64,000 bases of DNA from Candidatus Woesearchaeota archaeon (GCA_964471255.1 CAYYFB010000003.1:359-64358); one strand, 5' to 3'; numbered from the stretch's first letter, positions 3,586 through 60,836 are shown. Notes: generated from the letters alone by a model not told the origin. Program-made: numbers and translations.

Positions 3586-4209
3586 ATGGACAGTAAAGGT
3601 ATTATGGAGAAAAAAGAAAAAATTGTTGCTAACTCAGTTAGTTTAAAAATAGAAATGTCCTCTTCTAATCCTTTCTTAACCGAGTTTATAGAGGAAATAA
3701 GAAGAACTTTTGGTAATTCAATTAAAATTGACACAATTGAAAATCTCGAAATGGAAAAACCATACAGAATAAGCGTTTATGTTGATGATAAGAACATCCT
3801 GCATTTTTTAGGAATCCCAAAGAAAAGGGAAGTAGAAATGTTCAAGGATATCTTAGAAATTTTTTTAAACAGAGATAAATACCTTAATAAGAAAATATCG
3901 AGAATTTTTAACAAGATAAATGAACATGTTTGGTTAACGGTGTTTATAAGTCCTCTATGCCCTTACTGTCCTATTGCGGTAAGAATGTTGAGTAAGATAT
4001 CGCTTAGTTCTGGTAGTTTGGCTAAGGTTTTCGTTATCGACAGCATGGACAATCCAGATCTTGTTGAAAAGTACAAAATAAGAGTTGTCCCCACGATTTT
4101 TATAACAAAAGATCCTATAGAAAAGGCAAAAAGATATGATATTTTGGTTGGCGCATTTCCTGAGGAGTTTATTCTGGAGCGGATTGTTAAATTTTTCCTA
4201 GGTATATAA
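3586..4209 (+). CDS. Thioredoxin-fold protein, glutaredoxin/protein-disulfide-oxidoreductase-like
   Basis: SPLCPYCPIAVRML contains a CxxC active site, and VVPTIFI is the cis-Pro region. Only one CxxC is present in 207 aa. Confidence 0.7.
   Translation: MDSKGIMEKKEKIVANSVSLKIEMSSSNPFLTEFIEEIRRTFGNSIKIDTIENLEMEKPYRISVYVDDKNILHFLGIPKKREVEMFKDILEIFLNRDKYLNKKISRIFNKINEHVWLTVFISPLCPYCPIAVRMLSKISLSSGSLAKVFVIDSMDNPDLVEKYKIRVVPTIFITKDPIEKAKRYDILVGAFPEEFILERIVKFFLGI
4174..4182 (+). repeat. CTGGAGCGG word, copy 1
   Basis: Exact 9-mer, in-frame Leu-Glu-Arg (FILERIV) of the thioredoxin-fold gene. Confidence 0.95.
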
Positions 4210-5785
4210 GAACTCCTAGAAAGCAAAGGAAAAGCAGAAGTGCCAAAGGTATTGTCAAAAGCTTCTTCGCTGTCTCTTTTCTGACTTCGATAATTTTAGG
4301 AGAAAGTTTTGTATGTTTTATCTCTGAAGGTAAGGAGCTCATCTTAAGTGCAAGTTTAGCAAAATATATCGCAGCATTTTTATCTTCCTCCCATAATACG
4401 CTCGAATATTCTTTATAAAGAAGAGCTAGAATTGGGTAATAGTTCTGAGATACGTAAAATCTTATCCTTTTGTCCAATAGTTCCTGATATTTCTCAAATA
4501 CTTTCTCTTTATCTTCTAAGTTCTCGAGAGCAAGTTCAGATAGTACTTCCGCTTCTTTGGAGAGAAAAAGGGCCCTTACAGCTTTTCCCCTTTCTAACAG
4601 TTCTCTAGCTTTTTCTATTTTAGATTTGGCCTCTGCTACTGGACCTCCAGTATAGTAAGTGGAGGCGTAAATAACTCCTATTTCTGCTCTTTCTATAGCG
4701 TCTCTAGAACACCCTATATATTGATCTTCATCAAACACCCACTTGCCTGGAGGTATAAGGGACAGCCAAGCTTCAGCAGATATTATTCTTGCCTTCGCTC
4801 CAGCTATTTTTTCAATATCTCTAGACTCAACTCCCTCGTTAAGACTCTCATTCGCTTCATAGAGTCTATCTAGAAAGATGAAAACAAGCTCTAAAGAATT
4901 TGGATCATAGGTGAGGCGTTTTTTAGATAGATTCTTTATTTCATTTCTCATCTCCTGAACTTCATTTTCTATATTTTCTATATTCTCCTCTAAGTACTTT
5001 GTGTAAAGCTCTTTGATGGCTCTCACGCAATAACTTGCTGCAGAGTAATACTTGCCTTTCTTTTCCAGTTCTCGTGCTTTTTTAAGCAAATCTGATGGCT
5101 TTTTAGCGAGGTACTCAAAAGATTTAGCTTTTTTACATACCATAACCTCGGCTTTCTTTATCAGATTATTTATTTGTGTAAGGTTTATTTTTTGAATTTT
5201 TATTTGGATTTCTCTCTCCGTGAAGTATTTATAAGCATCCAAGGCATCCTTTACTTCTATTATCTTTGTCTTTTCCTCTATACTTTCTATCTCCTCTGTT
5301 TTTTCACCGTATGGTATTAAGAACAAAGATGCATACTCTTTTGCTGCCAGATACTTTTCTTTTATTCCCCCTACTGGACCAATTGACCAATCAGGATTTA
5401 TTGTGCCTGTCATTATGATGTCTTTCCTCAAAGTGGTATTGGATAAAAGGCCCATAGCAAGAACTGTCATAGCCGCTCCAGCACTGGGTCCTCCTACTAT
5501 TTCCCCCCTTCCCTCAATTCTGAAAAGGAAATCGTACCTACTACAATTAACATTAAAAATCTCGCATGCAACACGAACTGCAACACGAGCTGAGGCTTGG
5601 GTATCTACCTTAGTGAGGGGGCTTGTGCTTATGTAAACATTTCCATTTCCTGGGAGTATTTTAAGAGATAAATTTGCAATTATTCCTTTACCATTATGAA
5701 CCCCTACAATATATATCCAATCTTCGGAAGAAAATACAAAACAAAGGAAAAGAGGTATAGTTAAGACAAACCTACTTAATTTCAT
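4187..5785 (-). CDS. Exported, C-terminally anchored Lon-like (S16) serine protease with a long helical domain
   Basis: N-terminal signal-like MKLSRFVLTIPLFLCFVFS. The Lon proteolytic core is present: GGPSAGAAMTVLAMGLL (Ser) and GPVGGIKEKYLAA (Lys). An alpha-helical region of about 330 aa and a C-terminal TM follow. Confidence 0.7.
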   Translation of the reverse strand: MKLSRFVLTIPLFLCFVFSSEDWIYIVGVHNGKGIIANLSLKILPGNGNVYISTSPLTKVDTQASARVAVRVACEIFNVNCSRYDFLFRIEGRGEIVGGPSAGAAMTVLAMGLLSNTTLRKDIIMTGTINPDWSIGPVGGIKEKYLAAKEYASLFLIPYGEKTEEIESIEEKTKIIEVKDALDAYKYFTEREIQIKIQKINLTQINNLIKKAEVMVCKKAKSFEYLAKKPSDLLKKARELEKKGKYYSAASYCVRAIKELYTKYLEENIENIENEVQEMRNEIKNLSKKRLTYDPNSLELVFIFLDRLYEANESLNEGVESRDIEKIAGAKARIISAEAWLSLIPPGKWVFDEDQYIGCSRDAIERAEIGVIYASTYYTGGPVAEAKSKIEKARELLERGKAVRALFLSKEAEVLSELALENLEDKEKVFEKYQELLDKRIRFYVSQNYYPILALLYKEYSSVLWEEDKNAAIYFAKLALKMSSLPSEIKHTKLSPKIIEVRKETAKKLLTIPLALLLFLCFLGVLIYLGKI

Positions 5786-5794
5786 TATAATATT

Positions 5795-11377: not shown

Positions 11378-12128
11378 CAAGCTCAATAAAAATTCTAGGA
11401 TAAACAAATTCTATTTCTTTTTTATTAAACTTTTGCTTAATATATTCCTCAATACTATCCAAATTTCCGATCTCATCTACCAAATGCATTTTTATAGCTT
11501 CTGGAGCGAGGAAGATATTAGAAGTTTTTATCTCTTTCACCTCCTCTGCAGTTAAATTTCTATTTGCAGCAACTGAAGATAGGAAATTTTCATAAAGCTT
11601 GTTTACTATTTCCTTCAATCTTTCTATTTCTTCTGGAGCGGGCTGCTTAAATGGATTTCCCATTTCTTTTAAACTTCCATTATATATTTCTATATAAGAA
11701 ATGTTAAATCTCTGGAATAACCCATGAAGATTGATGAAAGAAGCTGAGACACCGATATTTCCAACCAATGCTCCCTCTTCCGCAAAGATTCTATCACAAT
11801 AACTTGCAATCCAATAGGCGCCAGATAGAGCTTCTTTGACATAGCAAAGAACTGTTTTATTTTCCTCTTTCAACCCTTTTATAGCATTAATAACATCGAT
11901 AATTCCCGAATAGGTCCCTCCAGGGCTATCGACTTCTAGAACTATTATCTCATATCTCTCATCTTTTCCTTCTTTCAATGCTTCTGCATATATCTTTCCA
12001 CTAAAAGAATCAATTTCCCCGACAATAGGGACAAAAAGAACTTTCTCTTTTCTAACTATCTCCCTAACATAGAGAAGAACAGGCAAAATCATTAAGATTA
12101 TACCTAGAGCTACTAGGAAATCCTTCAT
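11361..12128 (-). CDS. sppA: Signal peptide peptidase SppA (S49, short type)
   Basis: N-terminal TM, LEVDSPGGTYSG, and ALSGAYWIASYCD carrying the catalytic Ser context. Confidence 0.8.
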   Translation of the reverse strand: MKDFLVALGIILMILPVLLYVREIVRKEKVLFVPIVGEIDSFSGKIYAEALKEGKDERYEIIVLEVDSPGGTYSGIIDVINAIKGLKEENKTVLCYVKEALSGAYWIASYCDRIFAEEGALVGNIGVSASFINLHGLFQRFNISYIEIYNGSLKEMGNPFKQPAPEEIERLKEIVNKLYENFLSSVAANRNLTAEEVKEIKTSNIFLAPEAIKMHLVDEIGNLDSIEEYIKQKFNKKEIEFVYPRIFIELARGSI

Positions 12129-12276
12129 ATAATCTATCCTATTCCTTCCAATATTTTCCTTAACTCCAAATAGATTTCATATTCTTCGCGCTCCAGCTAA
12201 AAGGCTAATTGGTAAGCACCTATTTTTTTATCATGCTAACTACCCCTTCAAAAGCTAGGGATCCTAATAAGGTAGT

Positions 12277-12359
12277 GCGGGGGTGCCCGAGAGGCCAAAG
12301 GGGCCGGACTCAGAATCCGGTGGCTTAAGCCGTCGTGGGTTCGAATCCCACCCCCCGCA
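12277..12359 (+). tRNA. tRNA-Leu (anticodon CAG), class II with long variable arm
   Basis: Acceptor GCGGGGG/CCCCCGC, anticodon arm CCGGA-CTCAGAA-TCCGG, variable arm GGC-TTAA-GCC, T arm GTGGG-TTCGAAT-CCCAC, discriminator A. CCA is not encoded. Confidence 0.9.
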
Positions 12360-12818
12360 GGTGTATAAAAAATTTCAAGGAAAATATGGGTGTCCTAGTT
12401 AAACCTTTTGAGAGGTGTAGATATTACTTACCTCTTACTCCTAGATTCTCTTTATTACTTTATTACTGAACTGAATTCATTATAAAGAAGAATTCAAAAC
12501 ACTTCGATTATTCTCTGATGCATCACCTTTAGCTGATAGATACTCTTAAGGTTGGTATTAGTAAAGAAATATCTAAGAAATACTTCAGAGATGTCTTAGT
12601 AGGCTAATAAGGAGAAAAATTAGAAAAATTACTCTTGTGTCGGGACATAGGAGTTCTAAGTTTAAAAAACGTCTCAGAAAAGGCATACTAAAGTCTTCCT
12701 ACTCTCTTGACGACTTTTCATATCTTAAGTAAGCTTGAGAAAAACAAGGTTTCGATCAAAAAGGAAATAGATGGGCTGGAGGTTAGGGCAAGTTCTATCT
12801 TAAAAAATTTTAAACTCT

Positions 12819-19414: not shown

Positions 19415-19443
19415 ATAAAGTTAAGGTTTCAAAAAATAAAAGC

Positions 19444-19575: not shown

Positions 19576-20085
19576 TTAGACTTTTTCTTTTAAGACTTTT
19601 ATAAGTTCTCTTACATCCCTTATTCCATCCGTAAACTGTGGAACGAACTCACTAAGTATTTTCTCCATCGCCTTTAGGCTTGTTTTTACTTCTTTCATTT
19701 CATCTATATGTTCTTTCTCCCTTTCAGCAATTCTAGCCTGAATTTCAGAAAACACCCGCTCCAGCTCAGCAAGTTTTGATGACAATGATGTTATTTTACT
19801 CTCAGTGCTTTTTATTTTGTTCTCAAACTCAACGAGTCGCATATCTACTTTTTTCCATTTTTCCTCCACAATTGCCTCTACAAGCCTTTCTACATCTTCC
19901 ATCGTGGCATAAGCATATGTGGGTTCTGGAGGCTTGGTAACCTCTTTCTTAGGCCTCTCTTCTACCATCTCGATAGCCTCTTCCTTAGGTTCTTCTAGTT
20001 CTAACGGCATTTCTTCAATATCTTTTAATTCCTCTTCGATATCTTCAATCCCCTTCTCTTCTTTCTTTTTGCGTTTAAATATCAT
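19576..20085 (-). CDS. Acidic coiled-coil protein, unknown function
   Basis: 169 aa, E/K-rich, with heptad-like repeats. It overlaps the upstream coiled-coil gene by 4 nt, suggesting an operon. Confidence 0.45.
   Translation of the reverse strand: MIFKRKKKEEKGIEDIEEELKDIEEMPLELEEPKEEAIEMVEERPKKEVTKPPEPTYAYATMEDVERLVEAIVEEKWKKVDMRLVEFENKIKSTESKITSLSSKLAELERVFSEIQARIAEREKEHIDEMKEVKTSLKAMEKILSEFVPQFTDGIRDVRELIKVLKEKV
19756..19764 (-). repeat. CTGGAGCGG word, copy 2
   Basis: Exact 9-mer, in-frame LER (AELERVF) of the coiled-coil gene. Confidence 0.95.
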
Positions 20086-20513: not shown

Positions 20514-22772
20514 GTGAAATGTAAATATCAGCTTGTCTCTACTCCAACTGGAAAAGAATTAATCATTGATCTAGAGAGTTGCAAAATTCTCCCTACATTA
20601 GAGGATAATCCGGAGTGCATGAGAAAAGTGATTGAAATCCTTCTAAAGGTTGGAAAAATAGATTCTCTCTCACTTGTTTATAATCTAGAATACAATTATC
20701 CGAAAGATCAAACAGACATACTAAATGATTACAGACTAGCTCTGATAGATATTTATTTTAAAGAGAAAATTGAAGAAGAGTTAGATCGTATTTCAAAAGA
20801 GCCTATATATTTAAAATACCATGCTCCTACAATCGTAACTCTTAAGCATGTAGTCAAAGATCTGTTGCTTGAAGATCCAATAGAAGCATATCTGGAAGCT
20901 AGAAAGGCCTATTTCATAGAAAAAGCAAAAAAGCCTGTTGATGAGGAAAATAAAAGGACAAAAACAAAGATCCTGCTCCTTTTAGGTAATTTAATCAAAA
21001 AGTTAGAAGAAACAAAAATAATAAAAAAGTTTGAAGGCAGATTTAGAGAATACACAGAAAGAAATTTTTACCGAGAAATCTTTAGACCAATAATTAGGCC
21101 AGCTTTCATAAAAACAAGATTATACACAACCGGCCCCCCAGACTCTGTTGAAATTGAGAGCTATTTCAAATTAGGAAGGAAAATCTCAATTTTTAAAAAG
21201 AAAAATGAGAGTAGGTTTTATTACCTAATCACCCCTCCAGAGTATTTCCTAAAAAAAGATGAGATGGACATATTAATTTCAGTTAGAGATATTTTAGGAA
21301 AGCTCACTCCAGAAGAGACTCCCTTTATCCGAACTAGAAAGGTTAGAGAGATAGTAAAGGGAATGGCGATTGATCTCATTAACAAAGAGGCAAAAGAAAA
21401 AGGTTTAGACCTTTCTGGAGAAGATATTGAAAAACTTGCGGAAATTTTGACAAAAATAACGGTTGGGTTTGGAATTTTGGAAGATATAGTGGCTGATGAC
21501 AAAATAGAAGATGTATATATTAATTCTCCAATAGGGGAGATACCTATTATTGTAAAGCACTCGGATTATGGTGAAATGATTACTAATATTTTACCAAATG
21601 AAGAAGAAGTAAGAAGTTGGATATCAAAAATAAGACTTCTTTCTGGAAGACCGTTAGATGAAGCACATCCTGTTCTTGACTATGATCTTACCTTGCCCAC
21701 CGCAAGGACAAGGGTTGCAATAGTCCAACAACCCTTTTCAATGAAAGGTTATGCTATCGCCATCAGAAGACACAGAGCAAGACCTTGGACGCTCCCTCTT
21801 TTTATAAAAAATGGGATGATCTCTTCTTTAGGAGCTGCCTTGTTATGGTTCCTGGTAGATGGGGGAAGAACAATTCTAATAGCTGGAACCAGAGGGGCTG
21901 GAAAGACCTCTTTATTAATGAGTCTTATACTTCAAATATCAAGAAGATATCGTATAATTACAATTGAAGACACTCCAGAGCTTCCGGTAGATTATTATAG
22001 AAAATTAGGCTATAATATCCTTCCTCTTAAAGTAAGAAGCGCTACAGCTATTGAATCTGCGGAATTAACTGCTGAACAGGGAATAAGAACTTCCTTAAGA
22101 CTTGGAGATTCCTGCCTCATTATTGGAGAGGTAAGAGGAAAAGAAGCAAGAAGCCTTTACGAAGCAATGCGAGTGGGAGCAATGGCAAATGTTGTGGCTG
22201 GAACTATTCATGGAGATTCTCCTTATTCAGTATTCGATAGGGTTGTTAATGACATTGGTATTCCTCCGACATCTTTCAAAGCTACAGATATTATAGTGAT
22301 AGCCAATAAAATCAGAACCCCTGGTGGTCTAAGGGAGGTGAGGAGGGTTGTGGAGATTTCAGAAATAAGGAAACATTGGGAAAAAGATCCGCTTCTGGAG
22401 CGGGGGTTTATTACTCTAATGAGATATGACGGAAAAAAAGATTTGCTTGTCCCCACTCCAGAATTGATAGAAGGGGATAGCGAGATACTAAAATCCATAG
22501 CATCTAGAGTCAGAGAATTCATAGGAAGATGGGAGAAAATATGGGAAAACATCCTCCTAAGGAAGGAGGTGCTTGAGACTATCATTTCAATCTCAAACAA
22601 TGCAGGAAATCCTGAAATTTTGGAAGCAGAGTGTATAGTAGCTTCTAATGATATTTTTGCAAATGCAGTAGACAAAATAAAAGACGAATTAGGAGATCTG
22701 ATAAAGGAAGAGATCTACAAAGAATGGAAAGACAATTTTACAAAATATCTAAAAGAAAAAGGATATATATAG
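20514..22772 (+). CDS. Type II/IV secretion-system ATPase (FlaI/PilB/VirB11 superfamily) with an N-terminal extension of about 430 aa (GTG start)
   Basis: Walker A GTRGAGKTS, followed by IITIEDTPEL, IIGEVRGKEA and GTIHG boxes in the C-terminal half. The N-terminal half is not recognisable. Confidence 0.8.
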   Translation: MKCKYQLVSTPTGKELIIDLESCKILPTLEDNPECMRKVIEILLKVGKIDSLSLVYNLEYNYPKDQTDILNDYRLALIDIYFKEKIEEELDRISKEPIYLKYHAPTIVTLKHVVKDLLLEDPIEAYLEARKAYFIEKAKKPVDEENKRTKTKILLLLGNLIKKLEETKIIKKFEGRFREYTERNFYREIFRPIIRPAFIKTRLYTTGPPDSVEIESYFKLGRKISIFKKKNESRFYYLITPPEYFLKKDEMDILISVRDILGKLTPEETPFIRTRKVREIVKGMAIDLINKEAKEKGLDLSGEDIEKLAEILTKITVGFGILEDIVADDKIEDVYINSPIGEIPIIVKHSDYGEMITNILPNEEEVRSWISKIRLLSGRPLDEAHPVLDYDLTLPTARTRVAIVQQPFSMKGYAIAIRRHRARPWTLPLFIKNGMISSLGAALLWFLVDGGRTILIAGTRGAGKTSLLMSLILQISRRYRIITIEDTPELPVDYYRKLGYNILPLKVRSATAIESAELTAEQGIRTSLRLGDSCLIIGEVRGKEARSLYEAMRVGAMANVVAGTIHGDSPYSVFDRVVNDIGIPPTSFKATDIIVIANKIRTPGGLREVRRVVEISEIRKHWEKDPLLERGFITLMRYDGKKDLLVPTPELIEGDSEILKSIASRVREFIGRWEKIWENILLRKEVLETIISISNNAGNPEILEAECIVASNDIFANAVDKIKDELGDLIKEEIYKEWKDNFTKYLKEKGYI
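22395..22403 (+). repeat. CTGGAGCGG word, copy 3
   Basis: Exact 9-mer, in-frame LER (PLLERGF) of the 752-aa ATPase. Confidence 0.95.
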
Positions 22773-24271: not shown

Positions 24272-24960
24272 AACCAGCACCTTTCAATTTTTCCGTTAGT
24301 AATAAGGAGAAAAGATCTACTTTGAGAGAGTCTGGAGGAACAGACGGTTATTTGAAGATTATAGAAATTTTCATTCCTATGGATATGGCCACTAATGATA
24401 CATTTTTTCCTAACCCGCTCCAGAAACTCTTTCATTTTCTCTTTTCCATATACCCAAATCCCCGCTAATGGATCAAAGCCCGTCCTTGGGGAAGGTATTA
24501 CACCTTTTATTCTAGCAGGATCATTCCAAACTATTTGAGTAATAATACCCTCGTCTAGTCTTTTGATTTCGCACTCCAGAGGAATCCCTCCATGAAGAAA
24601 CACAAAATTGGGGGAGAAAACAGCAACGTAAAACGTCTCAAAAAAGCCTATATCATCTGGAGTGGGTTCGTAGGTCCTCGGATAACAACCAGGTCCACCT
24701 AAATACTGCCACTCGTGGTTTCCTATTAAGTTTATAATTCTTCCTGGATACTTTTTCTTTATATTTTTGAGCCACTCCAGAACCTCCCTAGAATTTGGGA
24801 ATCTGTCTATATTATCTCCCAGATTTATTAGTATGTATCCCTGTCTCACCTTCTCCTCAAGAAAACCCGATATTTGATCCAAAGAAGCAATATCCCCGTG
24901 GAAATCAGAAACTACGACTAGGTCCTCGTGCTCAATTACGAGATTTTTAGGCTTATACAT
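24268..24960 (-). CDS. Calcineurin-like metallophosphoesterase
   Basis: Motifs SDFHGD, LGDNIDR, GNHE and GHIH are present. Confidence 0.75.
   Translation of the reverse strand: MYKPKNLVIEHEDLVVVSDFHGDIASLDQISGFLEEKVRQGYILINLGDNIDRFPNSREVLEWLKNIKKKYPGRIINLIGNHEWQYLGGPGCYPRTYEPTPDDIGFFETFYVAVFSPNFVFLHGGIPLECEIKRLDEGIITQIVWNDPARIKGVIPSPRTGFDPLAGIWVYGKEKMKEFLERVRKKCIISGHIHRNENFYNLQITVCSSRLSQSRSFLLITNGKIERCWF
24415..24423 (-). repeat. CTGGAGCGG word, copy 4
   Basis: Exact 9-mer, in-frame LER (EFLERVR) of a metallophosphoesterase. Confidence 0.95.
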
Positions 24961-36688: not shown

Positions 36689-37353
36689 AGTTCCACATCT
36701 ATCCTAGTTATTCTCCTCGTTAGACAATATGCAACATTATATATTGGCTTCCCTTTTACTAAGGAGAAATTTTTTCCCATATGAGAATGGCCATGGATTC
36801 CTATATCAAATAAATCAATTACTTCTTCCCATTTTTTGCTTCCCATTTCAGGCCAAATCCAAGGTTTTTCTTTTACCAAGTTAGAGTATGTTATTGCATA
36901 ATGGGATAATAGAATTTTAAATCCTTTTTTCCGCTCCAGAATCTCTTTTATCTTTTCAAACCGCTTTCTATAAATCTCGTCAATATTAGGAATATTCCTC
37001 CTTTGCCATCGGGTTGGTTTGTCCAAAATGCCGGGTGTGCCTATTATCGAGATCTTCTTTCCTTGAATCTTTAGATCTATTACCTCATCCTCTAATAAAA
37101 TTATAGAGGAAAGATATTTCCTTGTGGCTTCATAAGTAAATTCATTATTTCCTCTAACCATTATTTTGGTGCAGTTCAATTTTGATATGTCGTTTTCAAA
37201 CCTCTTTAAATAGACATATGCGCCATTATCTATTACATCACCAGCTATGAGAAAAAGCTCACATTCTTCTTTTATTTTGTCTAATTCTTCCAAAAACATC
37301 TTGTACAATTCCCAATATCGAGGCAGGTGAAAATCAGAAACTGCAAATATCAT
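36685..37353 (-). CDS. Calcineurin-like metallophosphoesterase
   Basis: Motifs SDFHLP, AGDVIDNG, GNNE and GHSH are present. Confidence 0.75.
   Translation of the reverse strand: MIFAVSDFHLPRYWELYKMFLEELDKIKEECELFLIAGDVIDNGAYVYLKRFENDISKLNCTKIMVRGNNEFTYEATRKYLSSIILLEDEVIDLKIQGKKISIIGTPGILDKPTRWQRRNIPNIDEIYRKRFEKIKEILERKKGFKILLSHYAITYSNLVKEKPWIWPEMGSKKWEEVIDLFDIGIHGHSHMGKNFSLVKGKPIYNVAYCLTRRITRIDVEL
36931..36939 (-). repeat. CTGGAGCGG word, copy 5
   Basis: Exact 9-mer, in-frame LER (EILERKK) of a metallophosphoesterase. Confidence 0.95.
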
Positions 37354-39741: not shown

Positions 39742-41175
39742 GTGGGCATTTTTCCTATTGATATAGATCTCTTTCGGAAGTATCCTAAAAAATTTGAAAA
39801 AGAGTTTGAAAAGAGATTTCTTGACAAGAAAGTTCTGGAGCGGGCAAGAGAATTAGATAAAAAGTGGAGAGAAAAGATAAAACAGGTAAATAAGTTAAGG
39901 CATGAAATAAATAAAAGATCTAAAGCGATAGCAATAATTAAGGCTTTCTTAGAAAAGAAAATTAAAAAGGAAGAAGCTAAAGAAAAAATAAGGAAAATTC
40001 TGGAGCGGGATGTAGAAATAAATAAGAAAACTATAGAAAAGATTAAAAAGGAAGTAGGAGAGATAGAAAAAAAGCTAAAAGTAATAGAAAATGAGACAGA
40101 AAACATAAGAAGAGAGCTCTATAATATCCTTCTCACATTCCCACAATTCTCTTTAGATAAAATCCCAATCGGACCCGATGAAAGATATAACAAACCAATA
40201 AGATTTTGGGGGAAGCCAAAAGTTTGGAGAAATTATTTGGATCAGTTTAAAGAACAAATAGATGGCTTTGATGTAAAATATGAAGTAATTGAGGTAAAAC
40301 CCAAGCATCATTACGATATTATTAAGGAATATGATTTAGCGGATACAGAATTAGCAGGAAAAATGGCTGGAGCAAGGTTTTATATAGAAAAAAATGAGCT
40401 TGTTTTCTTAGACTTTGCACTAACTCTTTATGCCTTAGAGTTTTACAAGAAGAAGGGATTCGATTATGTTATAGTACCACCATATTTGATGAAAAGGGAT
40501 GTAGAAGAGAGAATAACCCATATAACAACTTTTGAGGATGCAATTTATACAACTAGGGAGGATGACTTAATACTAATACCAACCTCAGAACATCCCATCT
40601 GCGCTATGTTTATTGACAGAGTTTTTCTGGAGCGGGAGCTTCCACTTCGAATCCTTGCTTGGAGCCCAGCATTTAGGAGAGAGGCTGGAGCGCATGGTAA
40701 GGACACAAAAGGAATTTTTAGGACGCACCAGTTTCATAAGGTAGAATTGCATTCAGTAACAACACTTGACCAGGATCTGGAGGAATTGGAATACATGCTA
40801 AAAATCTTTGAGGAATTTAATAGAACTTTAAACATTCCTTACAGGGTTATAATCCTATCCAGCGGAGATATGGACAAAAGAGCTAGAATACAATACGATT
40901 TGGAGGCTTGGTTCCCAGGACAAGGGAAATATAGAGAACTTGGGTCTCTGGCTACAATGGGGGACTGGGTATCAAGAAAAATAAACACTAGGGTAGAAAG
41001 AAAAGGGAAAACAGAGTTTGTAGCTAACCTATATGCCACTGGTTGTGCTATTCAAAGGACCTGGTGCGCGATTTTAGAAAATAATTGGGATCCAAAGAAG
41101 AATATAATAAAAATTCCAAAACCTTTGTGGAGGTACACTGGGATAAAAAAGCTTTATCCTAAAGCTTCTTCCTAA
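39742..41175 (+). CDS. serS: Seryl-tRNA synthetase (GTG start)
   Basis: It has an N-terminal coiled-coil arm. Class II motifs are present: PTSEHPICAMF, FRREAGAHGKDTKGIFRTHQFHKVE and GCAIQRTWCAILEN. Confidence 0.9.
   Translation: MGIFPIDIDLFRKYPKKFEKEFEKRFLDKKVLERARELDKKWREKIKQVNKLRHEINKRSKAIAIIKAFLEKKIKKEEAKEKIRKILERDVEINKKTIEKIKKEVGEIEKKLKVIENETENIRRELYNILLTFPQFSLDKIPIGPDERYNKPIRFWGKPKVWRNYLDQFKEQIDGFDVKYEVIEVKPKHHYDIIKEYDLADTELAGKMAGARFYIEKNELVFLDFALTLYALEFYKKKGFDYVIVPPYLMKRDVEERITHITTFEDAIYTTREDDLILIPTSEHPICAMFIDRVFLERELPLRILAWSPAFRREAGAHGKDTKGIFRTHQFHKVELHSVTTLDQDLEELEYMLKIFEEFNRTLNIPYRVIILSSGDMDKRARIQYDLEAWFPGQGKYRELGSLATMGDWVSRKINTRVERKGKTEFVANLYATGCAIQRTWCAILENNWDPKKNIIKIPKPLWRYTGIKKLYPKASS
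39835..39843 (+). repeat. CTGGAGCGG word, copy 6
   Basis: Exact 9-mer, in-frame LER (KVLERAR) of serS. Confidence 0.95.
40000..40008 (+). repeat. CTGGAGCGG word, copy 7
   Basis: Exact 9-mer, in-frame LER (KILERDV) of serS. Confidence 0.95.
40627..40635 (+). repeat. CTGGAGCGG word, copy 8
   Basis: Exact 9-mer, in-frame LER (VFLEREL) of serS. Confidence 0.95.
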
Positions 41176-41650
41176 TTTTCTTATCACATTTCACTTTGCT
41201 TTTCATCCTTTCTTCTATTTCTTTATCTCCTATTTTGTGCTCTTGAATTCTTTCTTTAGTTAAAATATGAATAACTTTTATACCCATCTTGACCAAGTCA
41301 TTCGCAATGTATTTTCTGTGACACTTCCACCATTTCCATTCAGAGCAAAGAATTACTGTCGGGGCCTTCTTTGCAATTTTTATTAACTCTTTAAGACCCT
41401 CTTTATACTCCTTTGTCTTAGTATAAGCCACATAACCTCCTTCCCTATATCCTCCAAGCTTTTCGATATGAACATAACCTATTCCTTCCCGCTCCAGAGA
41501 TTCTTTCAAATTTTCTTTATTGAACCAAGGAAACTTCTTGCTTGTTGGGAATCTTCTCACATCTATAACAATTTTGATTCCAAAATGTTTTAATATGTCT
41601 AAAAACTCATCTAAGGTTTTTGTTGAATGTCCGATAGTATAAACCTTCAT
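41159..41650 (-). CDS. DUF488-family protein
   Basis: MKVYTIGHSTKTLDEFLDILKHFGIKIVIDVRRFP is the characteristic DUF488 N-terminus. Confidence 0.75.
   Translation of the reverse strand: MKVYTIGHSTKTLDEFLDILKHFGIKIVIDVRRFPTSKKFPWFNKENLKESLEREGIGYVHIEKLGGYREGGYVAYTKTKEYKEGLKELIKIAKKAPTVILCSEWKWWKCHRKYIANDLVKMGIKVIHILTKERIQEHKIGDKEIEERMKSKVKCDKKIRKKL
41489..41497 (-). repeat. CTGGAGCGG word, copy 9
   Basis: Exact 9-mer, in-frame LER (ESLEREG) of the DUF488 gene. Confidence 0.95.
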
Positions 41651-42188: not shown

Positions 42189-43006
42189 TATTGATTGTAA
42201 CCCATCAAGGACCCCCTAGCGATCTTATGAGAGAAATTACTATAGAAAAGCTTGGTTTAAAGGCCCGCTCCAGAAAGTTTGACGGCTTCTTAATATACGA
42301 AGGAACTTTTGAAGAATATCTTATTAACCTTATTACAGTAAAAAAAGAAATAGTTTACACAGATTATGTTTTCCAAACCTTTTCTCCAGAACTTGCAATT
42401 TTTTTATCTAAACATTCTTCAGAAAAGGGAATTCCATCTTTATGTGTTCATTGCACAGGAAATTTTGGTAAAGCTGAGCTAGGAGGAAAGGATAAATGTC
42501 TTTCAATAGCCCATGCTCCTTTTATGAAAAATGCAGTAAATTATTTAGCAAAGCATAAAATCCCCGGCTTTGAAATAGCTAGAGAAGTAACCCATCACGG
42601 ACCAACCCCTCTTGTCCCTGTCATATTCCTTGAGGTAGGATCTGGAGAAAAAGAATGGAAGAATGAGGAAGCTAGTGAATTAATAGTTGAATGTATGATC
42701 TATTGTTTGGAGAGATTAGATGAAGTATATGAAAGTTGTATATGTTTTGGAGGCCCACATTATTCTCCTTTTATCCAAATTGACCTTCAAACAAAGTACG
42801 CGACGGGTCACATTCTTCCAAAATGGGCCCAGGGGGATGTAAGTAAAGAGATAATAAAGCAAATGATAAAGAGGACCTATCCAGAGCCAAAATTTGCTGT
42901 CATAGACAAGAAGGGGCTTAGTAAAGAAAGTAGGGAAAAAATATTGAAATGGTTAGATGAAATGGGGGTGGAGGTAAAAAAGAAAAGAAATTTGTTAAAA
43001 GGATAG
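42164..43006 (+). CDS. dtdA: Archaeal-type D-aminoacyl-tRNA deacylase (DtdA)
   Basis: LCVHCTGNFG, EVTHHGPT and LEVGSGEKEW match the archaeal tRNA_deacylase family. Confidence 0.7.
   Translation: MPSKTSKMILIVTHQGPPSDLMREITIEKLGLKARSRKFDGFLIYEGTFEEYLINLITVKKEIVYTDYVFQTFSPELAIFLSKHSSEKGIPSLCVHCTGNFGKAELGGKDKCLSIAHAPFMKNAVNYLAKHKIPGFEIAREVTHHGPTPLVPVIFLEVGSGEKEWKNEEASELIVECMIYCLERLDEVYESCICFGGPHYSPFIQIDLQTKYATGHILPKWAQGDVSKEIIKQMIKRTYPEPKFAVIDKKGLSKESREKILKWLDEMGVEVKKKRNLLKG
42265..42273 (-). repeat. CTGGAGCGG word, copy 10
   Basis: Exact 9-mer, antisense to dtdA, where the sense strand reads A-R-S-R. Confidence 0.95.
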
Positions 43007-45912: not shown

Positions 45913-48524
45913 ACTCTTCTAAATATCCTCATTACCTCTTTTCTCTCTTCATCGGCTATCTTAGATATAAGCTCCTTCAAATCCGTTGAATATTTTCCTA
46001 AAATATCAGATCTTTTCTCCTTTGGAACAAAAGAAGCTATAACATATAAAGCTGGCTTTCTATAAGTCTGAACTAAATCTGCATTCAAATATATTTCTTC
46101 CTCATCAGCCTCCAGACTTCTTACATAGGAAAGTATCCCACCACAATGGGGACACTTAAATTCATAGATTTCCCTTACTTCTCTTTCCCAAAGGAATCTT
46201 TTCTCATTAATGCAATATGCATAAAGTTTTGTTCTTTCAAGCCTCTCTCTTACTAAAGCAAGAGTTTCCTCTTTAGTAAAGTAAACATCCCTAACTTCAA
46301 ATGAACATTCCTTTGTTAGATCAGAAACCCCTCTATAAACGTTTATTTTTATTTTTCCAGTTTTTATCTTTTCCATTATTTCTTTTGCTTTTTCTATCTC
46401 TGTTTTGTCAACTATAAACTCCCTTAGAGCTTCTGCCTCAACTGGAGTGCCTGCTAATTCCCTTAGAGTAGATAGAACAAAAGAAGAATCAAAACTAGCC
46501 TCTCTTGAAAATATCCCAAACCTTCTCGCCACATGAAACATCCTAATCCTAAAAAGAGATGTCCTCTTTATCCCCTCTATCAAATCATCATAATCGAATC
46601 CTAATTTAAGCAAACGAATGACATCTTCATACTCATCATATTTTATTACAATCCTATAGGGATCAACCTTAATTCTTACATCCATTCCAAGTTCTTCTCC
46701 CAACCTTCTGGCAAGGATTCTTCCTATAACTTCATTTACTTTCAAACCAAATGGACAGTTTAAAATTGTATATTTTCCATCCCATTCTACAACTATTTCA
46801 TCTTTTCTTGGAATCCAAGGAGGATTTTTAAAGAATTTTGTAATTAGCCTCCCCCTATATTCGGTAGCTTTTTGTGCTACATCAAAGTTCACCGGAATTA
46901 ACTCACCTTCCCATGCTGGGATTTCTCCTGGTTCCTTTTCTCTTCTAACAAATATTTTGGTTCCATGCAAACCCACTATTCTCCAGCATTCCCCTTTTAT
47001 TACAATAACATTCCCTACGTGGCCATAATTAGCAACAAATTCTTCATGCAGAATACCTATAGGCTTCCTTTCCTCTTCATCTATAACCAGATATGATTTT
47101 TCATCTGGAATCATTGAAATGTTTTCAATATAATATAAAAGTGTCCTTTTCCTCATTTTCACATTACCATCGGACTCAAAAAACCTAATAATTCTTATTT
47201 CATCCATAAACTTTAGCAAGGATTTTAGCATTTCCTTTTTGAATTTTCTGTAGTATTTTGATCTCCTTATTATTCTAAATATCTCATCTAAGTTCGTTCT
47301 CCTTTTATCTATTAAAATACCAGCTATTTGATGACATAAAACATCTAAAGCATTTGCATGAATATCCTCCTCTTCCAAATAGCCTTGTAAACCCAATTCT
47401 TTTATAGCAAGAGATTCACAGTAATCATCAAAATTCATAGTTACAATATATCCAATCGAAACTTCTCCCATCCGATGTCTGGAGCGGCCTACTCTTTGAA
47501 CTAGTCTTTTTACTTGCCTTGGGCTCATGAACTGAATCACGGCATCTATATGTCCAATATCTATACCTAATTCCATTGAACTTGTTGCTACTAGTCCTTT
47601 CAACTCTCCTTCCCTAAGCATTTTTTCATGTTCCTCCCTTACCGCTCTAGACAAGCTGGAATGGTGGGTCTCGATCGATATTCCTTTAAAAAGGGCTTTT
47701 ATTCTGGAAGAAATCAACTCTGCTGTCTCTCTCGTATTAGTAAAGATGAGGCATGATCCAGGAGTATTTATTATTAAATCATAAATTTTCCTAATGCTCC
47801 ATGCCACTCTCTTTGGAACAAACAAAATTGATGCTATTTCCTCATCCTTTTTCGTTATCTCTGGATAAAATACTTTTATCCTATATGCCCTCGTTCCAGA
47901 AAAGTTTATAACCTCGAACTCTTCCTCTCCCATGAAATACTCAGCGTATTCCCTAGGCCTCTTTACAGTAGCTGAAAGAAGTATTGTTTGAAATTTAGTT
48001 ATCTCCCTAAGCCGCTCCAGACCTAGGGATAGCTGAACGCCTCTCTTGGATCCTATCATTTCATGAACTTCATCAATTATAACATATTTCACCTGCTCCA
48101 GAATTTTTCTCAATCTTTTCCCAAAAAAGAGAATTTGAAATGTTTCTGGTGTTGTAATTAAGACATCTGGAGGGCTTAATGCTTGTTTCCTTCTTAAGGA
48201 AGGAGGAGTGTCTCCATGCCTTACATCAACTGAGATTCCTAGCTGAATTCCTGCCTTAATCAATCTTCTAAACATGTCCCTATTCAAAGATCTTAAAGGA
48301 GTTATGTAAAGACATTTTCCCTTTTCTTTAATTATCCTATAAAATATTCCCGCCATTGCGGCCTCTGTTTTTCCATATCCTGTAGGAGCAACAATTATAA
48401 TGTTTTTTCCTTCAATAACTAGAGGGATAGATTCTTTTTGTAGTTCATTAAATTCTTTAAACCCAAAAGCACTTCTTATTTTTTCTAATAATTCTTTATC
48501 CACATAGATGATAGGAAAATTCAT
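45909..48524 (-). CDS. Lhr-type superfamily 2 DEAD/DEAH-box helicase with a C-terminal zinc ribbon
   Basis: APTGYGKT (motif I), DEVH (II), SAT (III) and QRVGRSRHR (VI). The extended C-terminal region carries CPHCGG. Confidence 0.85.
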   Translation of the reverse strand: MNFPIIYVDKELLEKIRSAFGFKEFNELQKESIPLVIEGKNIIIVAPTGYGKTEAAMAGIFYRIIKEKGKCLYITPLRSLNRDMFRRLIKAGIQLGISVDVRHGDTPPSLRRKQALSPPDVLITTPETFQILFFGKRLRKILEQVKYVIIDEVHEMIGSKRGVQLSLGLERLREITKFQTILLSATVKRPREYAEYFMGEEEFEVINFSGTRAYRIKVFYPEITKKDEEIASILFVPKRVAWSIRKIYDLIINTPGSCLIFTNTRETAELISSRIKALFKGISIETHHSSLSRAVREEHEKMLREGELKGLVATSSMELGIDIGHIDAVIQFMSPRQVKRLVQRVGRSRHRMGEVSIGYIVTMNFDDYCESLAIKELGLQGYLEEEDIHANALDVLCHQIAGILIDKRRTNLDEIFRIIRRSKYYRKFKKEMLKSLLKFMDEIRIIRFFESDGNVKMRKRTLLYYIENISMIPDEKSYLVIDEEERKPIGILHEEFVANYGHVGNVIVIKGECWRIVGLHGTKIFVRREKEPGEIPAWEGELIPVNFDVAQKATEYRGRLITKFFKNPPWIPRKDEIVVEWDGKYTILNCPFGLKVNEVIGRILARRLGEELGMDVRIKVDPYRIVIKYDEYEDVIRLLKLGFDYDDLIEGIKRTSLFRIRMFHVARRFGIFSREASFDSSFVLSTLRELAGTPVEAEALREFIVDKTEIEKAKEIMEKIKTGKIKINVYRGVSDLTKECSFEVRDVYFTKEETLALVRERLERTKLYAYCINEKRFLWEREVREIYEFKCPHCGGILSYVRSLEADEEEIYLNADLVQTYRKPALYVIASFVPKEKRSDILGKYSTDLKELISKIADEERKEVMRIFRRV
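47479..47487 (+). repeat. CTGGAGCGG word, copy 11
   Basis: Exact 9-mer, antisense to the helicase, where the sense strand reads G-R-S-R (motif VI). Confidence 0.95.
48012..48020 (-). repeat. CTGGAGCGG word, copy 12
   Basis: Exact 9-mer, in-frame LER (LGLERLR) of the helicase. Confidence 0.95.
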
Positions 48525-49091: not shown

Positions 49092-50332
49092 ATTTTGGCT
49101 GCCCTACTTCTCTATTTGAATCTGAACTTATTAGAGGAATTTTGGAGAAAAACGGCTATGAAATAACCGATGATCTGGAGCGGGCGAATGTAGTTATAAT
49201 CCATGGCTGTATAGTTAAGGAACCTACCGAAAAAAGAGAATTAAGCCTTCTGGAGCGGCTCCAGAAAAAAGGAAAGAAAGTTATTGTTTCTGGATGTTTA
49301 GCAGATTATTTTCCAGATAGATTTATAAAAAAAGGCATTCCATGTTGTGGGGTTAATTTTCTTGATAAAATAGTCCAATGTATTGAAAAAGGGATATCTT
49401 TTACAAATGGAAAGAAAAAAGAAAAGTTAGGATATCCTAGAAAACTAAGAAAAAAGGTATGTGCTCCACTAGTTATCTGTGAGGGCTGCACTTTTAACTG
49501 CTCCTATTGTGCTGGGAAACTTGTAAGAAAAAACTTGTTTTCTTACTCCCTGGAGCGGATAAAAAAAGAATTTGTATGGCTGCTCCAGAAAGGGATAAAA
49601 GAAATATGGATTACTGGGCAGGATGTAGGAGCATATGGATTAGATAAAGGAACTGATTTGGTAAAACTTCTTAAAAACCTGCTTGAAATAGAAGGGGAAT
49701 ATAGGATTAGAATAGGGATGATGCACCCTCTTTCGCTTAAGAGAATTATTGAGGGAATTATAGCCTTGCTTAATTCGGAAGAAAGAATATACAAATTTAT
49801 TCACATTCCGCTCCAGTCTGGTTCAAATAGGGTACTCCAGTTAATGAGAAGGGAATATACTAAGGAGGAATTCGAAGAAATTTTTCTTACTTTAAGAAAA
49901 GAGGTTAAAAATATCTCAATTGGAACGGATGTAATAGTAGGTTTTCCTACTGAAACTGAAGAAGAATTTTGGGAAACTGTTGAATTAATAAGAAAATTAA
50001 AACCTGATTTCTTAAATGTAACAAGATATTGGCCAAGAAAAGGAACCGAAGCATATAAGTTAAAACCTCACCCTCCAGAATTGGTAAAGGAAAGAAGCAG
50101 GATTATGAGCAAAGTGCATAGGGAAGTTTCTTTAAAAAGAAATCTGGAGTGGGTCGGATGGAAAGGAAAAGTTCTCGTTAATGAGATTGGTGTTAAAAAC
50201 TCGTTCATATCAAGGAACAATTCGTATAAGCCGGTTGTTATTAGAGAGTTTGTAGAGCTTGGGTCATTTGTGAAAGTAAAAATAATAGAAGCCAAGGAAT
50301 TCTTTTTGATTGGAAAGATTCATAATAAGTGA
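49028..50332 (+). CDS. Radical-SAM methylthiotransferase, archaeal MiaB-like/MtaB (CDKAL1) type
   Basis: N-terminal UPF0004 region (NFGCPTS...), radical-SAM CTFNCSYC (CxxxCxxC) and a C-terminal TRAM-like domain. The start is uncertain because 49028 overlaps the upstream ORF by 64 nt. Confidence 0.85.
   Translation: MERGNNRAKKGSKGKEVACVLNFGCPTSLFESELIRGILEKNGYEITDDLERANVVIIHGCIVKEPTEKRELSLLERLQKKGKKVIVSGCLADYFPDRFIKKGIPCCGVNFLDKIVQCIEKGISFTNGKKKEKLGYPRKLRKKVCAPLVICEGCTFNCSYCAGKLVRKNLFSYSLERIKKEFVWLLQKGIKEIWITGQDVGAYGLDKGTDLVKLLKNLLEIEGEYRIRIGMMHPLSLKRIIEGIIALLNSEERIYKFIHIPLQSGSNRVLQLMRREYTKEEFEEIFLTLRKEVKNISIGTDVIVGFPTETEEEFWETVELIRKLKPDFLNVTRYWPRKGTEAYKLKPHPPELVKERSRIMSKVHREVSLKRNLEWVGWKGKVLVNEIGVKNSFISRNNSYKPVVIREFVELGSFVKVKIIEAKEFFLIGKIHNK
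49175..49183 (+). repeat. CTGGAGCGG word, copy 13
   Basis: Exact 9-mer, in-frame LER (DDLERAN) of the MiaB-like gene. Confidence 0.95.
49250..49264 (+). repeat. CTGGAGCGG word, copy 14, embedded in the inverted repeat CTGGAGC-G-GCTCCAG
   Basis: The exact 9-mer occupies 49250-49258 (LLERLQ). The 15-mer is a perfect 7-bp inverted repeat around one central base, so the bottom strand carries a one-mismatch copy. Confidence 0.95.
49550..49558 (+). repeat. CTGGAGCGG word, copy 15
   Basis: Exact 9-mer, in-frame LER (YSLERIK) of the MiaB-like gene. Confidence 0.95.
49808..49816 (-). repeat. CTGGAGCGG word, copy 16
   Basis: Exact 9-mer, antisense to the MiaB-like gene, where the sense strand reads P-L-Q. 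Confidence 0.95.
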
Positions 50333-52600: not shown

Positions 52601-53536
52601 TTATATCCATTCAGAAGGAATGGAAGATTTTTCACAAATTGTTTCTCTTAAAGATTCTGGTTTTTCATATTTTTGAGCTAAACTCCTCAATTTTCTTCTT
52701 ACTCTATTAGCCAATCTATCTTTATATTGACGCACTTCTATAGGCCAGAGTCCTAGGTTCTTTCTTTTTGAGAGAGTAACCACCGGAACTAGCCTTCTTT
52801 TTCTCTCAACGAACTGTACAATTCCTATCCCAGGAATAAATGTTGGTCTTACTTCCTTGCTCTCCACATAGGTAAAAGTAATACTCACATCTCTTCTTAA
52901 CTTCCTAATAATTCTCCTTATTCTCTCTATCAACTTAGGTAGTAACTTAACATACTCCTGTATTTCCGTATAAAGGCTCTTTAATTTTTCCAAAAAATCT
53001 ATAATGTACTTCCCGTAACCAAACAATTCTAAAACGGCTTTAATATTTTGTTTTGCCTCCAATATTTCTGGGAATTTTTCTTCAGCATCTTGAACTATTC
53101 CTTCTAAAGTTAAAACCATGTTTCCTAACCCTCTTTTCTCCAGAAAATCAGTCATGTCCCTAAAACTATCTAAAAGCTCTTGCATTAGCCTTTTATAATA
53201 GATAATCTCATCTAGTCCCCTTTCAAGCCGATCAGCAACCCAGCAGGAGGCACTTATTCTATCCAGATGATAATAAGACATCCTTTTTATTGTTTCTCCA
53301 AGATTTGTCCAGATTTTCTGGAGCGGCTCAAAATAACCTCTATATAAAACATGATAAATCCAAAATAGATCCTGAATGATCCAAATTGTATATCCTCTAA
53401 ATTCATTTTTACGTGAAAGGAAATTATCATCTAAAATCTCTTTCAAATGCCTCAATCCGTTTTTAAGTGAGGTGGTTCTTACCCTAAGGAAATCTAGAAG
53501 ATCTCTTCGGTTAGAAATATAGGAGCCTATCTCCAT
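52601..53536 (-). CDS. Hypothetical helical, R/K-rich protein
   Basis: 311-aa ORF with no recognisable motif. Confidence 0.4.
   Translation of the reverse strand: MEIGSYISNRRDLLDFLRVRTTSLKNGLRHLKEILDDNFLSRKNEFRGYTIWIIQDLFWIYHVLYRGYFEPLQKIWTNLGETIKRMSYYHLDRISASCWVADRLERGLDEIIYYKRLMQELLDSFRDMTDFLEKRGLGNMVLTLEGIVQDAEEKFPEILEAKQNIKAVLELFGYGKYIIDFLEKLKSLYTEIQEYVKLLPKLIERIRRIIRKLRRDVSITFTYVESKEVRPTFIPGIGIVQFVERKRRLVPVVTLSKRKNLGLWPIEVRQYKDRLANRVRRKLRSLAQKYEKPESLRETICEKSSIPSEWI
53318..53326 (+). repeat. CTGGAGCGG word, copy 17
   Basis: Exact 9-mer, antisense to the 52601-53536 gene, where the sense strand reads P-L-Q. Confidence 0.95.
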
Positions 53537-59805: not shown

Positions 59806-59849
59806 AGAAATATTACTGAGGGGAACTTAAGTAGCCTAAAAGTGCTTTA

Positions 59850-60836
59850 TTAATAAGAGTGCTGGAGATAATCTAAAAGATAAATTATGTTGTCAAACGA
59901 AAGGACAGGTATTTTTACTTTATTCCAAATTTCCTCTTTCATATTTACTTTAATAGGATGGCATTCCCTGTACACCCAGGTAATTCCTGGCAATTCTTTC
60001 TTCTCTTCTTTACATTGCATTTTCCAACCAACTTCATTTTCCTTCGGCATAATGAATATTGTTTTGTTCCCTTTCTTGCAAGCCTCTGCCTTCTCCATTA
60101 TCCCTCCGACTTTTCTAAGCTTCCCTAGATTATCTATTGCTCCAGTTATGCAAACATTATTTGGGAATTCCTTTCCTGTTAGGGTAAAATACAGGGCTGA
60201 GGTTAGGGCTGCTCCAATGCTTGGGCCATCTATTGTAACATTTTTCCCACTAAAACTTATATAAATATCATACTTTGAAGTATCTATTCCTAGAATGCCC
60301 TTAACAATATTCATCGACTCACTTATTGTCTCTTGAAGTTCTACCCCATATAATGGGCCAAGATTTACATAAAGCCTTCCCGCTCCAGGGCAAGCTCTAA
60401 TGGAAACATTAACTAAGACTCCCTTTCCATCCGAGACTGCTGGAGCTTGAAACTCATTTGAATAGCAAGCCTCTATTGTTTTATTTTTAATTATTCTTCC
60501 TACTCTCTGTATTTCTCTTTCGCAAATAACTATTTTTGACTTGCTATCATATACTAGCTTTAGTGCTCCAGCTTCCCTAATCCTACATGCCTCTTCTGAA
60601 TTCTTATCTAGAAATCTTGAACAAATTAGTGCTCCAGTATCTACATCATACACATTAACTTTCCCACTATAGCCCCTAGAAGAAATTATAAGGTAATTAT
60701 GCTTGCAATAAGCAAAAATTGCCTCCCTTTCTCCGCTTCCATATTTTGACATTCTTAGATTTTGATGGCCAAGAAAGAGCATTTCAAGCAAGGCTAAAAT
60801 TCCTAAGCAGATTACTCCTATTCTTACTAAATCCAT
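59850..60836 (-). CDS. N-terminally anchored Lon-like (S16) serine protease
   Basis: It has an N-terminal TM. TIDGPSIGAALTSALYFTLTG carries the Ser and ITGAIDNLGKLRKVGGIMEKAEA the Lys. It is a paralogue of the catalytic domain at 4187-5785. Confidence 0.65.
   Translation of the reverse strand: MDLVRIGVICLGILALLEMLFLGHQNLRMSKYGSGEREAIFAYCKHNYLIISSRGYSGKVNVYDVDTGALICSRFLDKNSEEACRIREAGALKLVYDSKSKIVICEREIQRVGRIIKNKTIEACYSNEFQAPAVSDGKGVLVNVSIRACPGAGRLYVNLGPLYGVELQETISESMNIVKGILGIDTSKYDIYISFSGKNVTIDGPSIGAALTSALYFTLTGKEFPNNVCITGAIDNLGKLRKVGGIMEKAEACKKGNKTIFIMPKENEVGWKMQCKEEKKELPGITWVYRECHPIKVNMKEEIWNKVKIPVLSFDNIIYLLDYLQHSY
60380..60388 (-). repeat. CTGGAGCGG word, copy 18
   Basis: Exact 9-mer on the sense strand of the S16 protease gene but out of frame (read as P-G-A-G). 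Confidence 0.95.

Follow-up and report, generated by a model that had tools for sequence, protein, structure and literature searches.

The 64,000-nucleotide stretch of contig CAYYFB010000003.1 (GCA_964471255.1) analysed here, to which we refer as the window, has a G+C content of 34.7% and an archaeal gene content that includes eIF-1A, eIF-2 beta, Hjc, AglB and Kae1. The named best matches of its CCA-adding enzyme and its MiaB-like protein are metagenome-assembled genomes of Nanoarchaeota, Parvarchaeota and Woesearchaeota, so the window probably derives from a DPANN-type archaeon. It encodes an Lhr helicase, a Rad50/SbcC-like ATPase and an Hjc resolvase, two type IV pilus-like T2SSE/T2SSF loci (ATPase and platform genes) and, as the only Rfam matches, four tRNAs. 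Running through these genes is a short word, CTGGAGCGG (complement CCGCTCCAG), present in 20 exact copies, 11 on the + and 9 on the - strand, all inside open reading frames (ORFs) and distributed over 15 unrelated genes from 4.2 to 60.4 kb. A preliminary description of the window had listed 18 copies, every one correctly located and within a coding sequence, and had overlooked two, at 5473..5481 (-) and 11633..11641 (+). It had also rightly pointed to two pilus-type machineries and to a tRNA-Leu(CAG), which we place at 12276-12360; that either has to do with the word is, as it had conceded, speculation. In addition to the window, we consider 319 nt on its left, recovered from a Logan contig, which carry one further exact copy and one copy of the variant with T at position 7.

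The abundance of the word exceeds by far what composition or codon usage would yield. Dinucleotide-preserving shuffles of the window give an expected count of 0.07 and Markov models of order 1-4 give 0.08-0.54, whereas permuting synonymous codons inside each gene, a procedure that retains the proteins and the per-gene codon usage and includes the codons of CTGGAGCGG itself, gives a mean of 0.19 and a maximum of 2 in 500 permutations. The codon-preserving shuffle, named beforehand as a possible refutation, does not reproduce the observed count. Seven of the copies extend to the exact 12-mer TTCTGGAGCGGG, and the whole family of sites within two mismatches of this 12-mer comprises 41 members between 2193 and 61231 (20 on +, 21 on -), against 2.45 expected from dinucleotide shuffles or 4.7 +/- 2.0 from codon shuffles. 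Exact copies thus occur at a density of 1 per 3.2 kb and family members at about 1 per 1.6 kb.

An unbiased k-mer scan of the window ranks CTGGAGCGG and its sub- and superstrings first at each k from 7 to 12 and, once the word family is masked, leaves no comparable word in the window. For an empirical background, we counted the word in archaeal metagenome loci: the 38 with low GC (<40%; 386 kb) hold a single copy, and the full set of 80 (877 kb) holds eight. The copies are modestly clustered (variance/mean of 1.65 in 4-kb bins), and exact ones are absent from 12.2-19.7 kb, 24.8-36.9 kb and 53.4-60.3 kb; the middle one of these intervals, in which AglB, a T2SSE/T2SSF pilus operon, eIF-1A, a RIO kinase and a KH protein are encoded, has a single two-mismatch site. 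The hexamer CTGGAG on its own occurs 103 times in the window, 8-fold above the zero-order expectation, and was set aside as a signal because much of it is ordinary xCT-GGA-Gxx coding.

The word could in principle reflect the proteins rather than the DNA, and here the reading frames are informative. Thirteen copies are read in frame as Leu-Glu-Arg (LER), as had been described, two are sense in frame +1 (AGAA and PGAG) and five are antisense (PLQ twice, xRSR twice and PAPE once); the preliminary description had seen these types, with one fewer copy each in the sense out-of-frame and antisense classes. For each of the six combinations of frame and orientation, we counted all peptide sites in the window that are compatible with the word, and then those that carry it. 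The word is found at 13 of the 31 LER sites (sense 0), both xGAx sites (sense +1), two of the three PLQ sites (antisense 0), one of the three xAPx sites (antisense +1) and two of the four xRS(R/S) sites (antisense +2), while sense +2 (xWSG) has no compatible site in the window. At least a third of the compatible sites are thus converted in all five frames that have any, at a rate that is as high in antisense (5/10) as in sense (15/33).

Codon preference offers no explanation either, as none of the three codons that make up the in-frame copies is the preferred choice in the window (Leu CTG, 6.3% of its family; Glu GAG, 35%; Arg CGG, 2.5%), and 13 of the 30 CGG codons fall within the word. From this usage, 0.017 in-frame copies would be expected among the 31 LER tripeptides, of which the 18 not encoded by the word use other codon sets, in agreement with the earlier count. 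The seven copies outside LER compare with 0.13 expected (P ~1e-10). A selection acting at the level of translation or peptide, in which Leu-Glu-Arg is favoured or the rare triplet CTG-GAG-CGG is selected in the mRNA as a ribosome pause or RNA-binding site, would agree with the 13 in-frame copies among 20, with the presence of a tRNA-Leu(CAG) and with the 2.7-fold over-representation of LER in the window's proteins. The LER excess is not special, however, since LEK and REL are also about 2-fold enriched, and the apparent bias towards sense LER arises because LER peptides are common, not because the signal requires them. The non-LER copies also share the flanks of the others, if weakly (TT before three and G after three of the seven), the same DNA word underlies variants read as LEW and PTPE, and LER at the word sites is unconserved among homologues. 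Together, the frame counts and the seven non-LER copies effectively refute such a peptide-level origin, which we consider highly improbable, and CTGGAGCGG is well supported as a DNA-level word rather than a peptide or codon effect. The earlier notion of a DNA-level signal tolerated wherever the peptide allows it is borne out by this occupancy of frames, by flanks that run past codon boundaries and by the orthologue comparison described below. A depletion of the family in genes without a Pfam match (3 of 41 members versus 11.3 expected, P = 0.0013) was dropped as evidence, as it is confounded by LER peptides also being fewer in those genes.

How the copies arose can be followed in relatives with 38-59% protein identity: GCA_054036315.1 (loci L009 and L012, 38 kb in all), which at 52-59% identity has orthologues of several word-bearing genes, and the more distant low-GC locus L014 (GCA_054042545.1, JBPKUX010000006.1), of 21 kb. 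Where the peptide is shared, the first relative encodes it with different, mostly A/T-richer synonymous codons. In Lhr, the in-frame copy at 48012..48020 (-) lies in a conserved LGLERL that the relative encodes with TTGGAAAGA, four changes away from CTGGAGCGG. In the MiaB/CDKAL1-like methylthiotransferase gene, the antisense copy at 49808..49816 (-) underlies the PLQ of the near-invariant motif HIPLQSG, encoded there by CCTTTGCAG. In the Lon_C-domain gene at 4187-5785, the sense +1 copy at 5473..5481 (-) covers the AGAA of PSAGAAM, which the relative keeps with GCAGGAGCCGCG and which we take to resemble the Lon catalytic-serine motif. A second Lon_C-domain gene, at 59850-60836, likewise bears an out-of-frame copy, at 60380..60388 (-), read as PGAG.

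At other sites the residues themselves have changed in the window's lineage. The three in-frame copies of the MiaB-like gene, at 49175..49183, 49250..49258 and 49550..49558 (all +), stand where the relative has PKD, VRK and KDI, and LER is absent at all three positions from each of 39 orthologues. The antisense copy of Lhr at 47479..47487 (+) is read as GRSR, whereas the relative has GRAG (GGAAGGGCAGGG), a change of RAG to RSR. In the seryl-tRNA synthetase (SerRS) gene (39742-41175), three in-frame 12-mers occur on the + strand: at 39835..39843, where 1 of 58 homologues has LER; at 40000..40008, with LER in none; and at 40627..40635, where LER is found in 0 of 58 and the closest peptide is EEK. 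The middle one lies within a lineage-specific segment of the N-terminal arm, near residue 87, that is lacking in 57 of the 58 homologues. Altogether, six of the seven LER-word sites tested are at unconserved residues (0/39, 0/39, 0/39, 1/58, 0/58 and 0/58), which matches the preference for poorly conserved amino acids described for Haemophilus and Neisseria uptake sequences by Findlay & Redfield 2009 (PMC2817400). On these alignments, the word and not the peptide is what the window's lineage gained.

None of the words coincides with a short indel: nine of the ten aligned sites are free of indels and the tenth is the one in the long lineage-specific segment, so the copies originated by multiple point substitutions and not by insertion. 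This bears directly on a tiny mobile element, gene conversion among repeats, or an assembly or contamination artefact as the source of the many identical short copies. Beyond the 12-mer, the flanks of the copies are unrelated, with an identity of about 0.3 that equals random, the reading frames are intact, and the window sequence is identical in an independent Logan assembly of SRR7051321. The insertion of an element is refuted by the orthologue alignments, and the chance that any explanation of this kind holds appears to us close to negligible.

The remaining exact copies are spread over genes of varied function. Read in frame as LER are those at 4174..4182 (+) in a thioredoxin-like gene (3586-4209), 19756..19764 (-) in a hypothetical gene (19576-20085), 22395..22403 (+) in a T2SSE-family ATPase gene (20514-22772), 24415..24423 (-) and 36931..36939 (-) in two metallophosphoesterase genes (24268-24960 and 36685-37353) and 41489..41497 (-) in a DUF488 gene (41159-41650). 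Antisense copies lie at 11633..11641 (+) in an S49 peptidase gene (11361-12128; PAPE), at 42265..42273 (-) in the gene of a D-aminoacyl-tRNA deacylase (D-Tyr-tRNA deacylase; 42164-43006; ARSR) and at 53318..53326 (+) in a hypothetical gene (52601-53536; PLQ). The copies at 11633, 22395, 24415 and 42265 are, like those of SerRS, part of exact 12-mers.

Anchoring the sites on their most constant parts reveals a longer motif. Around GAGCGG (n=25), the positions -3 to -1 are C, T and G in 21-22 of the 25 (C at -3 in 21, and CTG as a whole in 20), with T at -4 in 17 and at -5 in 14; downstream of TCTGGAG, a C or T is followed by G, G and G. From these preferences, we derive the full consensus TTCTGGAG(C/T)GGG. 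The exact word is preferentially preceded by T at -2 and -1 and followed by G at +10, so that the motif spans codon boundaries; the flank bias noted in the preliminary description is real, and its counts now stand at 12/20 for a preceding TT and 11/20 for a following G. Nearly no one-mismatch variants of the 9-mer differ at positions 1-6, and the variants are gathered at positions 7-9. Those listed earlier are present, but the two commonest had escaped notice. The first, CTGGAGTGG (C7 to T), has eight copies, against 0.12 expected, between 10890 and 51569, with starts at 10890 (-), 22453 (-), 24657 (+), 24772 (-), 38348 (-), 43878 (+), 50144 (+) and 51561 (-); four of them are TTCTGGAGTGGG, and they are read as LEW (three), PTP(E/D) (three), ATPA and TGVA. 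The second, CTGGAGCAG (G8 to A), has five copies between 10958 and 49588, with starts at 10958 (+), 13309 (+), 48093 (-), 48630 (+) and 49580 (-). A third one-mismatch variant, CTGGAGCGC, has four copies. At 49248-49266, the word at 49250-49258 and an overlapping inverted near-copy form TTCTGGAGCGGCTCCAGAA, a perfect 9+1+9 palindrome in the MiaB-like gene with the peptide LLERLQK.

Variants such as PTPE and LEW look like the best match that a given peptide permits. The two commonest variants (TGG, eight; CAG, five) are at the same time the transition products of the word's internal CpG, in a window where CpG is depleted (observed/expected of 0.45) and GpC is not (0.98). This brings in the main rival to a signal that spreads between cells, a biased repair or mutation process without transfer, in which an enzyme with sequence specificity, such as a glycosylase or a mismatch endonuclease linked to a methyltransferase, preferentially resolves near-cognate mismatches towards the word and so spreads it by substitution within the lineage. 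Such a process would agree with the origin of the copies by substitution rather than insertion and with their presence in all frames and orientations, and the CpG-centred variants hint that the cytosine there is methylated or deaminated. The highly iterated palindrome HIP1 (GCGATCGC) of cyanobacteria shows the same in-gene, all-frame hyper-abundance and has reportedly spread by nucleotide substitution, and CTGGAG is the recognition sequence of a Type IIG restriction enzyme (BpmI/GsuI). However, the word is non-palindromic, unlike HIP1 and the typical targets of methyltransferases and very short patch (VSP) repair; VSP repair in E. coli shifts word frequencies by a small factor, versus more than 100-fold here; and repair of the VSP type should remove T-variants, of which there is in fact an excess. 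Single-mismatch patch repair would also hardly build 9-12 specified positions, given the four changes that separate the Lhr codons of the relative from the word, and a Pfam search of the window found no methyltransferase or restriction-modification gene. Taking both sides together, we regard a repair-based origin as somewhat unlikely.

The orientation of the copies speaks to a third explanation. The exact copies are split 11:9 and the family members 20:21 between the strands, with + and - copies interleaved along the window. The word thus has no polarity, a 75% strand skew being disfavoured at P = 0.04 (exact) and P = 0.0009 (family), and in this it is unlike Chi and KOPS. In the third explanation, the copies are sites that a chromosomal protein binds or recognizes and that host selection keeps for chromosome architecture, for condensation or as a Chi-like 'self' tag. 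Several points favour it: the Chi density of E. coli, about 1 per 5 kb, is similar to that of the word; the 3' AGCGG of the word is the Chi of B. subtilis and resembles the S. aureus Chi, GAAGCGG; the window encodes the Lhr helicase, the Rad50/SbcC-like ATPase and the Hjc resolvase; and the word is strongly lineage-specific. As a 'self' tag, it would modulate a helicase-nuclease or shield the cell's own DNA from nucleases in a symbiont that scavenges foreign DNA. Against it stand, besides the missing polarity, the usual nature of architectural sites, which are few and intergenic, and the difficulty of explaining selection for about one site per 1.6-3 kb at an amino-acid cost. RecBCD and AddAB are not known from archaea, and neither they nor FtsK were detected among the Pfam matches of the window. 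The known polar words of archaea, the archaeal short polarized sequences (ASPS), are 4-mers (PMC2958812). We therefore view a host-selected protein site as unlikely.

The word is confined to the lineage of the window as far as our comparisons extend. The two relatives contain no copy in 59 kb, where the window's rate would predict 18.5 (P ~1e-8), and no hyper-abundant word of their own was found in either (38 kb of L009 and L012, 21 kb of L014). We also compared 49 archaeal metagenome loci that carry a MiaB-like gene and measure at least 8 kb; none has a 9-mer that is both enriched and numerous to the degree seen in any 16-kb slice of the window. The phenomenon is thus lineage-specific and unusual. 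In L014, the palindrome-centred words TGCAATTGCA and TTCCAATTGCA occur four times each in 21 kb, a weak observation that might represent another repeated signal.

We also scanned the viral sequences of IMG/VR with a two-word pattern, which returned 69 matches, nearly all of them tandem repeats, tRNA genes or high-GC DNA. One 4-kb phage-like contig (IMGVR_UViG_3300005590_000446; 37.8% GC, with terminase-like and portal genes) carries four exact copies of TTCTGGAGCGGG on one strand, at 1278-1289, 3630-3641, 3696-3707 and 3744-3755. We rejected it as a viral link, since each of the four is read as (D/A)PAPE within an acidic linker and three related viral contigs are without the word; chance or a locally repeated peptide probably accounts for these copies.

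The explanation that we favour, tentatively and with a probability of about 0.4, is that TTCTGGAG(C/T)GGG is a lineage-specific, strand-symmetric recognition word that has spread in the manner of the uptake signal sequences (USS) and DNA uptake sequences (DUS) of bacteria, through a bias in DNA uptake or transfer and subsequent recombination. A DNA-binding component of an import or cell-to-cell transfer apparatus, acting as a sequence-specific receptor, would prefer fragments that bear the word, with a graded preference that extends to near-matches. Homologous recombination of the imported DNA would then spread word-bearing alleles in the population, a form of molecular drive, and purifying selection on the proteins would limit the word to tolerated frames and positions. 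The directional force would have to outweigh the A/T bias of codon usage and, where residues are poorly conserved, the amino-acid sequence too. In its boldest form, which we hold to be possible but doubtful, this would be the first DNA uptake or self-recognition sequence in Archaea, with a symbiont, probably of DPANN type, that tags its DNA with TTCTGGAGCGGG and whose receptor, pilus-linked or otherwise, selectively imports or exchanges conspecific DNA or spares it from nucleases.

Several points weigh against such a signal for uptake or transfer. The two pilus-like loci are weak evidence, because loci of this kind are generic in archaea, where type IV-like pili are very widespread. Neither ComEC and DprA nor other recognizable competence genes were found among the Pfam matches of the window, and no intergenic inverted-pair terminator copies, common for USS and DUS, were seen in it. 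Biased repair without any DNA transfer would yield an identical static pattern, and the excess of CpG-site variants could equally come from methylation-linked decay. All frames here use rare G/C-rich codons, unlike the favoured USS and DUS frames, which use preferred codons according to Findlay & Redfield (PMC2817400). On the other side, and circumstantially, natural transformation in Methanococcus, whose DNA transporter is still unknown, depends on pili of the type IV kind (PMC10133366).

Elsewhere in the window, three features deserve mention. The tRNA-Gly(TCC) at 23798-23871 (-) overlaps the 5' end of the longest Hjc resolvase ORF (23798-24271, +), and the true start of Hjc therefore probably lies further downstream. 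With its 91 nt, the tRNA-Ile(UAU) at 19442-19532 is of a length that suggests an intron. The gene at 14228-15634 encodes a 468-amino-acid protein with two stretches that match the ThyX (Thy1) family, an unusually long and apparently duplicated form.

A literature search turned up no paper that treats the word as a genomic signal, none on the sample or assembly accessions and, for archaea, no sequence of the uptake type, only the 4-nt polar ASPS; uptake sequences go unmentioned in the study of transformation in Methanococcus (PMC10133366). Hyper-abundant genomic words are rare, and those that are understood (USS, DUS, Chi and the FtsK-orienting KOPS) have each exposed a dedicated DNA-handling machine. 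In an uncultured archaeon, probably of DPANN type, a word that rewrites codons and residues implies that a DNA-binding activity with sequence specificity acts genome-wide. If the boldest form of our reading is true, sequence-specific 'sex' or discrimination between self and non-self DNA would have arisen independently in an archaeal episymbiont lineage. The 12-mer provides a concrete probe and a route to testing selective DNA exchange in such symbionts, and the word can serve as a marker for binning the contigs of this lineage and spotting recently acquired genes.

Among known systems of repeated genomic words, Rickettsia palindromic elements and miniature inverted-repeat transposable elements resemble the word as repeats that lie within coding genes and leave the frame unbroken. 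They are, however, inserted elements of about 100 bp or more, whereas copies of the word share only 12 bp and, aligned with orthologues, show substitution and no inserted sequence longer than the core. Chi (E. coli GCTGGTGG, B. subtilis AGCGG and S. aureus GAAGCGG), KOPS and ASPS are, like the word, short, over-represented and G-rich. The preliminary description had offered Chi and KOPS together with USS and DUS as analogies, and it is the polar members of this list that fit less well: the great majority of Chi and KOPS sites point in the direction of replication, unlike the balanced and interleaved copies seen here, and their cognates, RecBCD/AddAB or FtsK, are not known from archaea. HIP1, too, is hyper-abundant within genes, in all frames, lineage-specific and spread by substitution, but it is an 8-bp palindrome, whereas the word is asymmetric (CTGGAGCGG versus CCGCTCCAG) and 9-12 bp long. 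HIP1 is tied to orphan methyltransferases (PMC4390886).

The better fit is to USS (Pasteurellaceae, core AAGTGCGGT) and DUS (Neisseriaceae, GCCGTCTGAA with dialects). These are bacterial signals with a demonstrated uptake bias and a receptor, such as the minor pilin ComP, and the word belongs to an archaeon, probably of DPANN type; it further differs from them in its lack of observed inverted-pair terminator copies and in the rare codons of all its copies. In form, the likeness is close: all are non-palindromic, 9-12 bp long, with a strict core and softer flanks, and the word, like the USS of H. influenzae, is more G+C-rich than its own genome. All are in massive excess over composition and codon usage, and all occur in both orientations, balanced and without polarity in the 64 kb studied here, with many in-gene copies that keep to tolerated frames and poorly conserved residues, as described for USS and DUS in PMC2817400. 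The density of USS and DUS, about 1 per 1.2 kb when derived from that study and from genome sizes, is within a few-fold of that of the word. Finally, the word shares with USS and DUS the many one-off variants and, like the DUS dialects, is specific to its lineage (PMC3630211).

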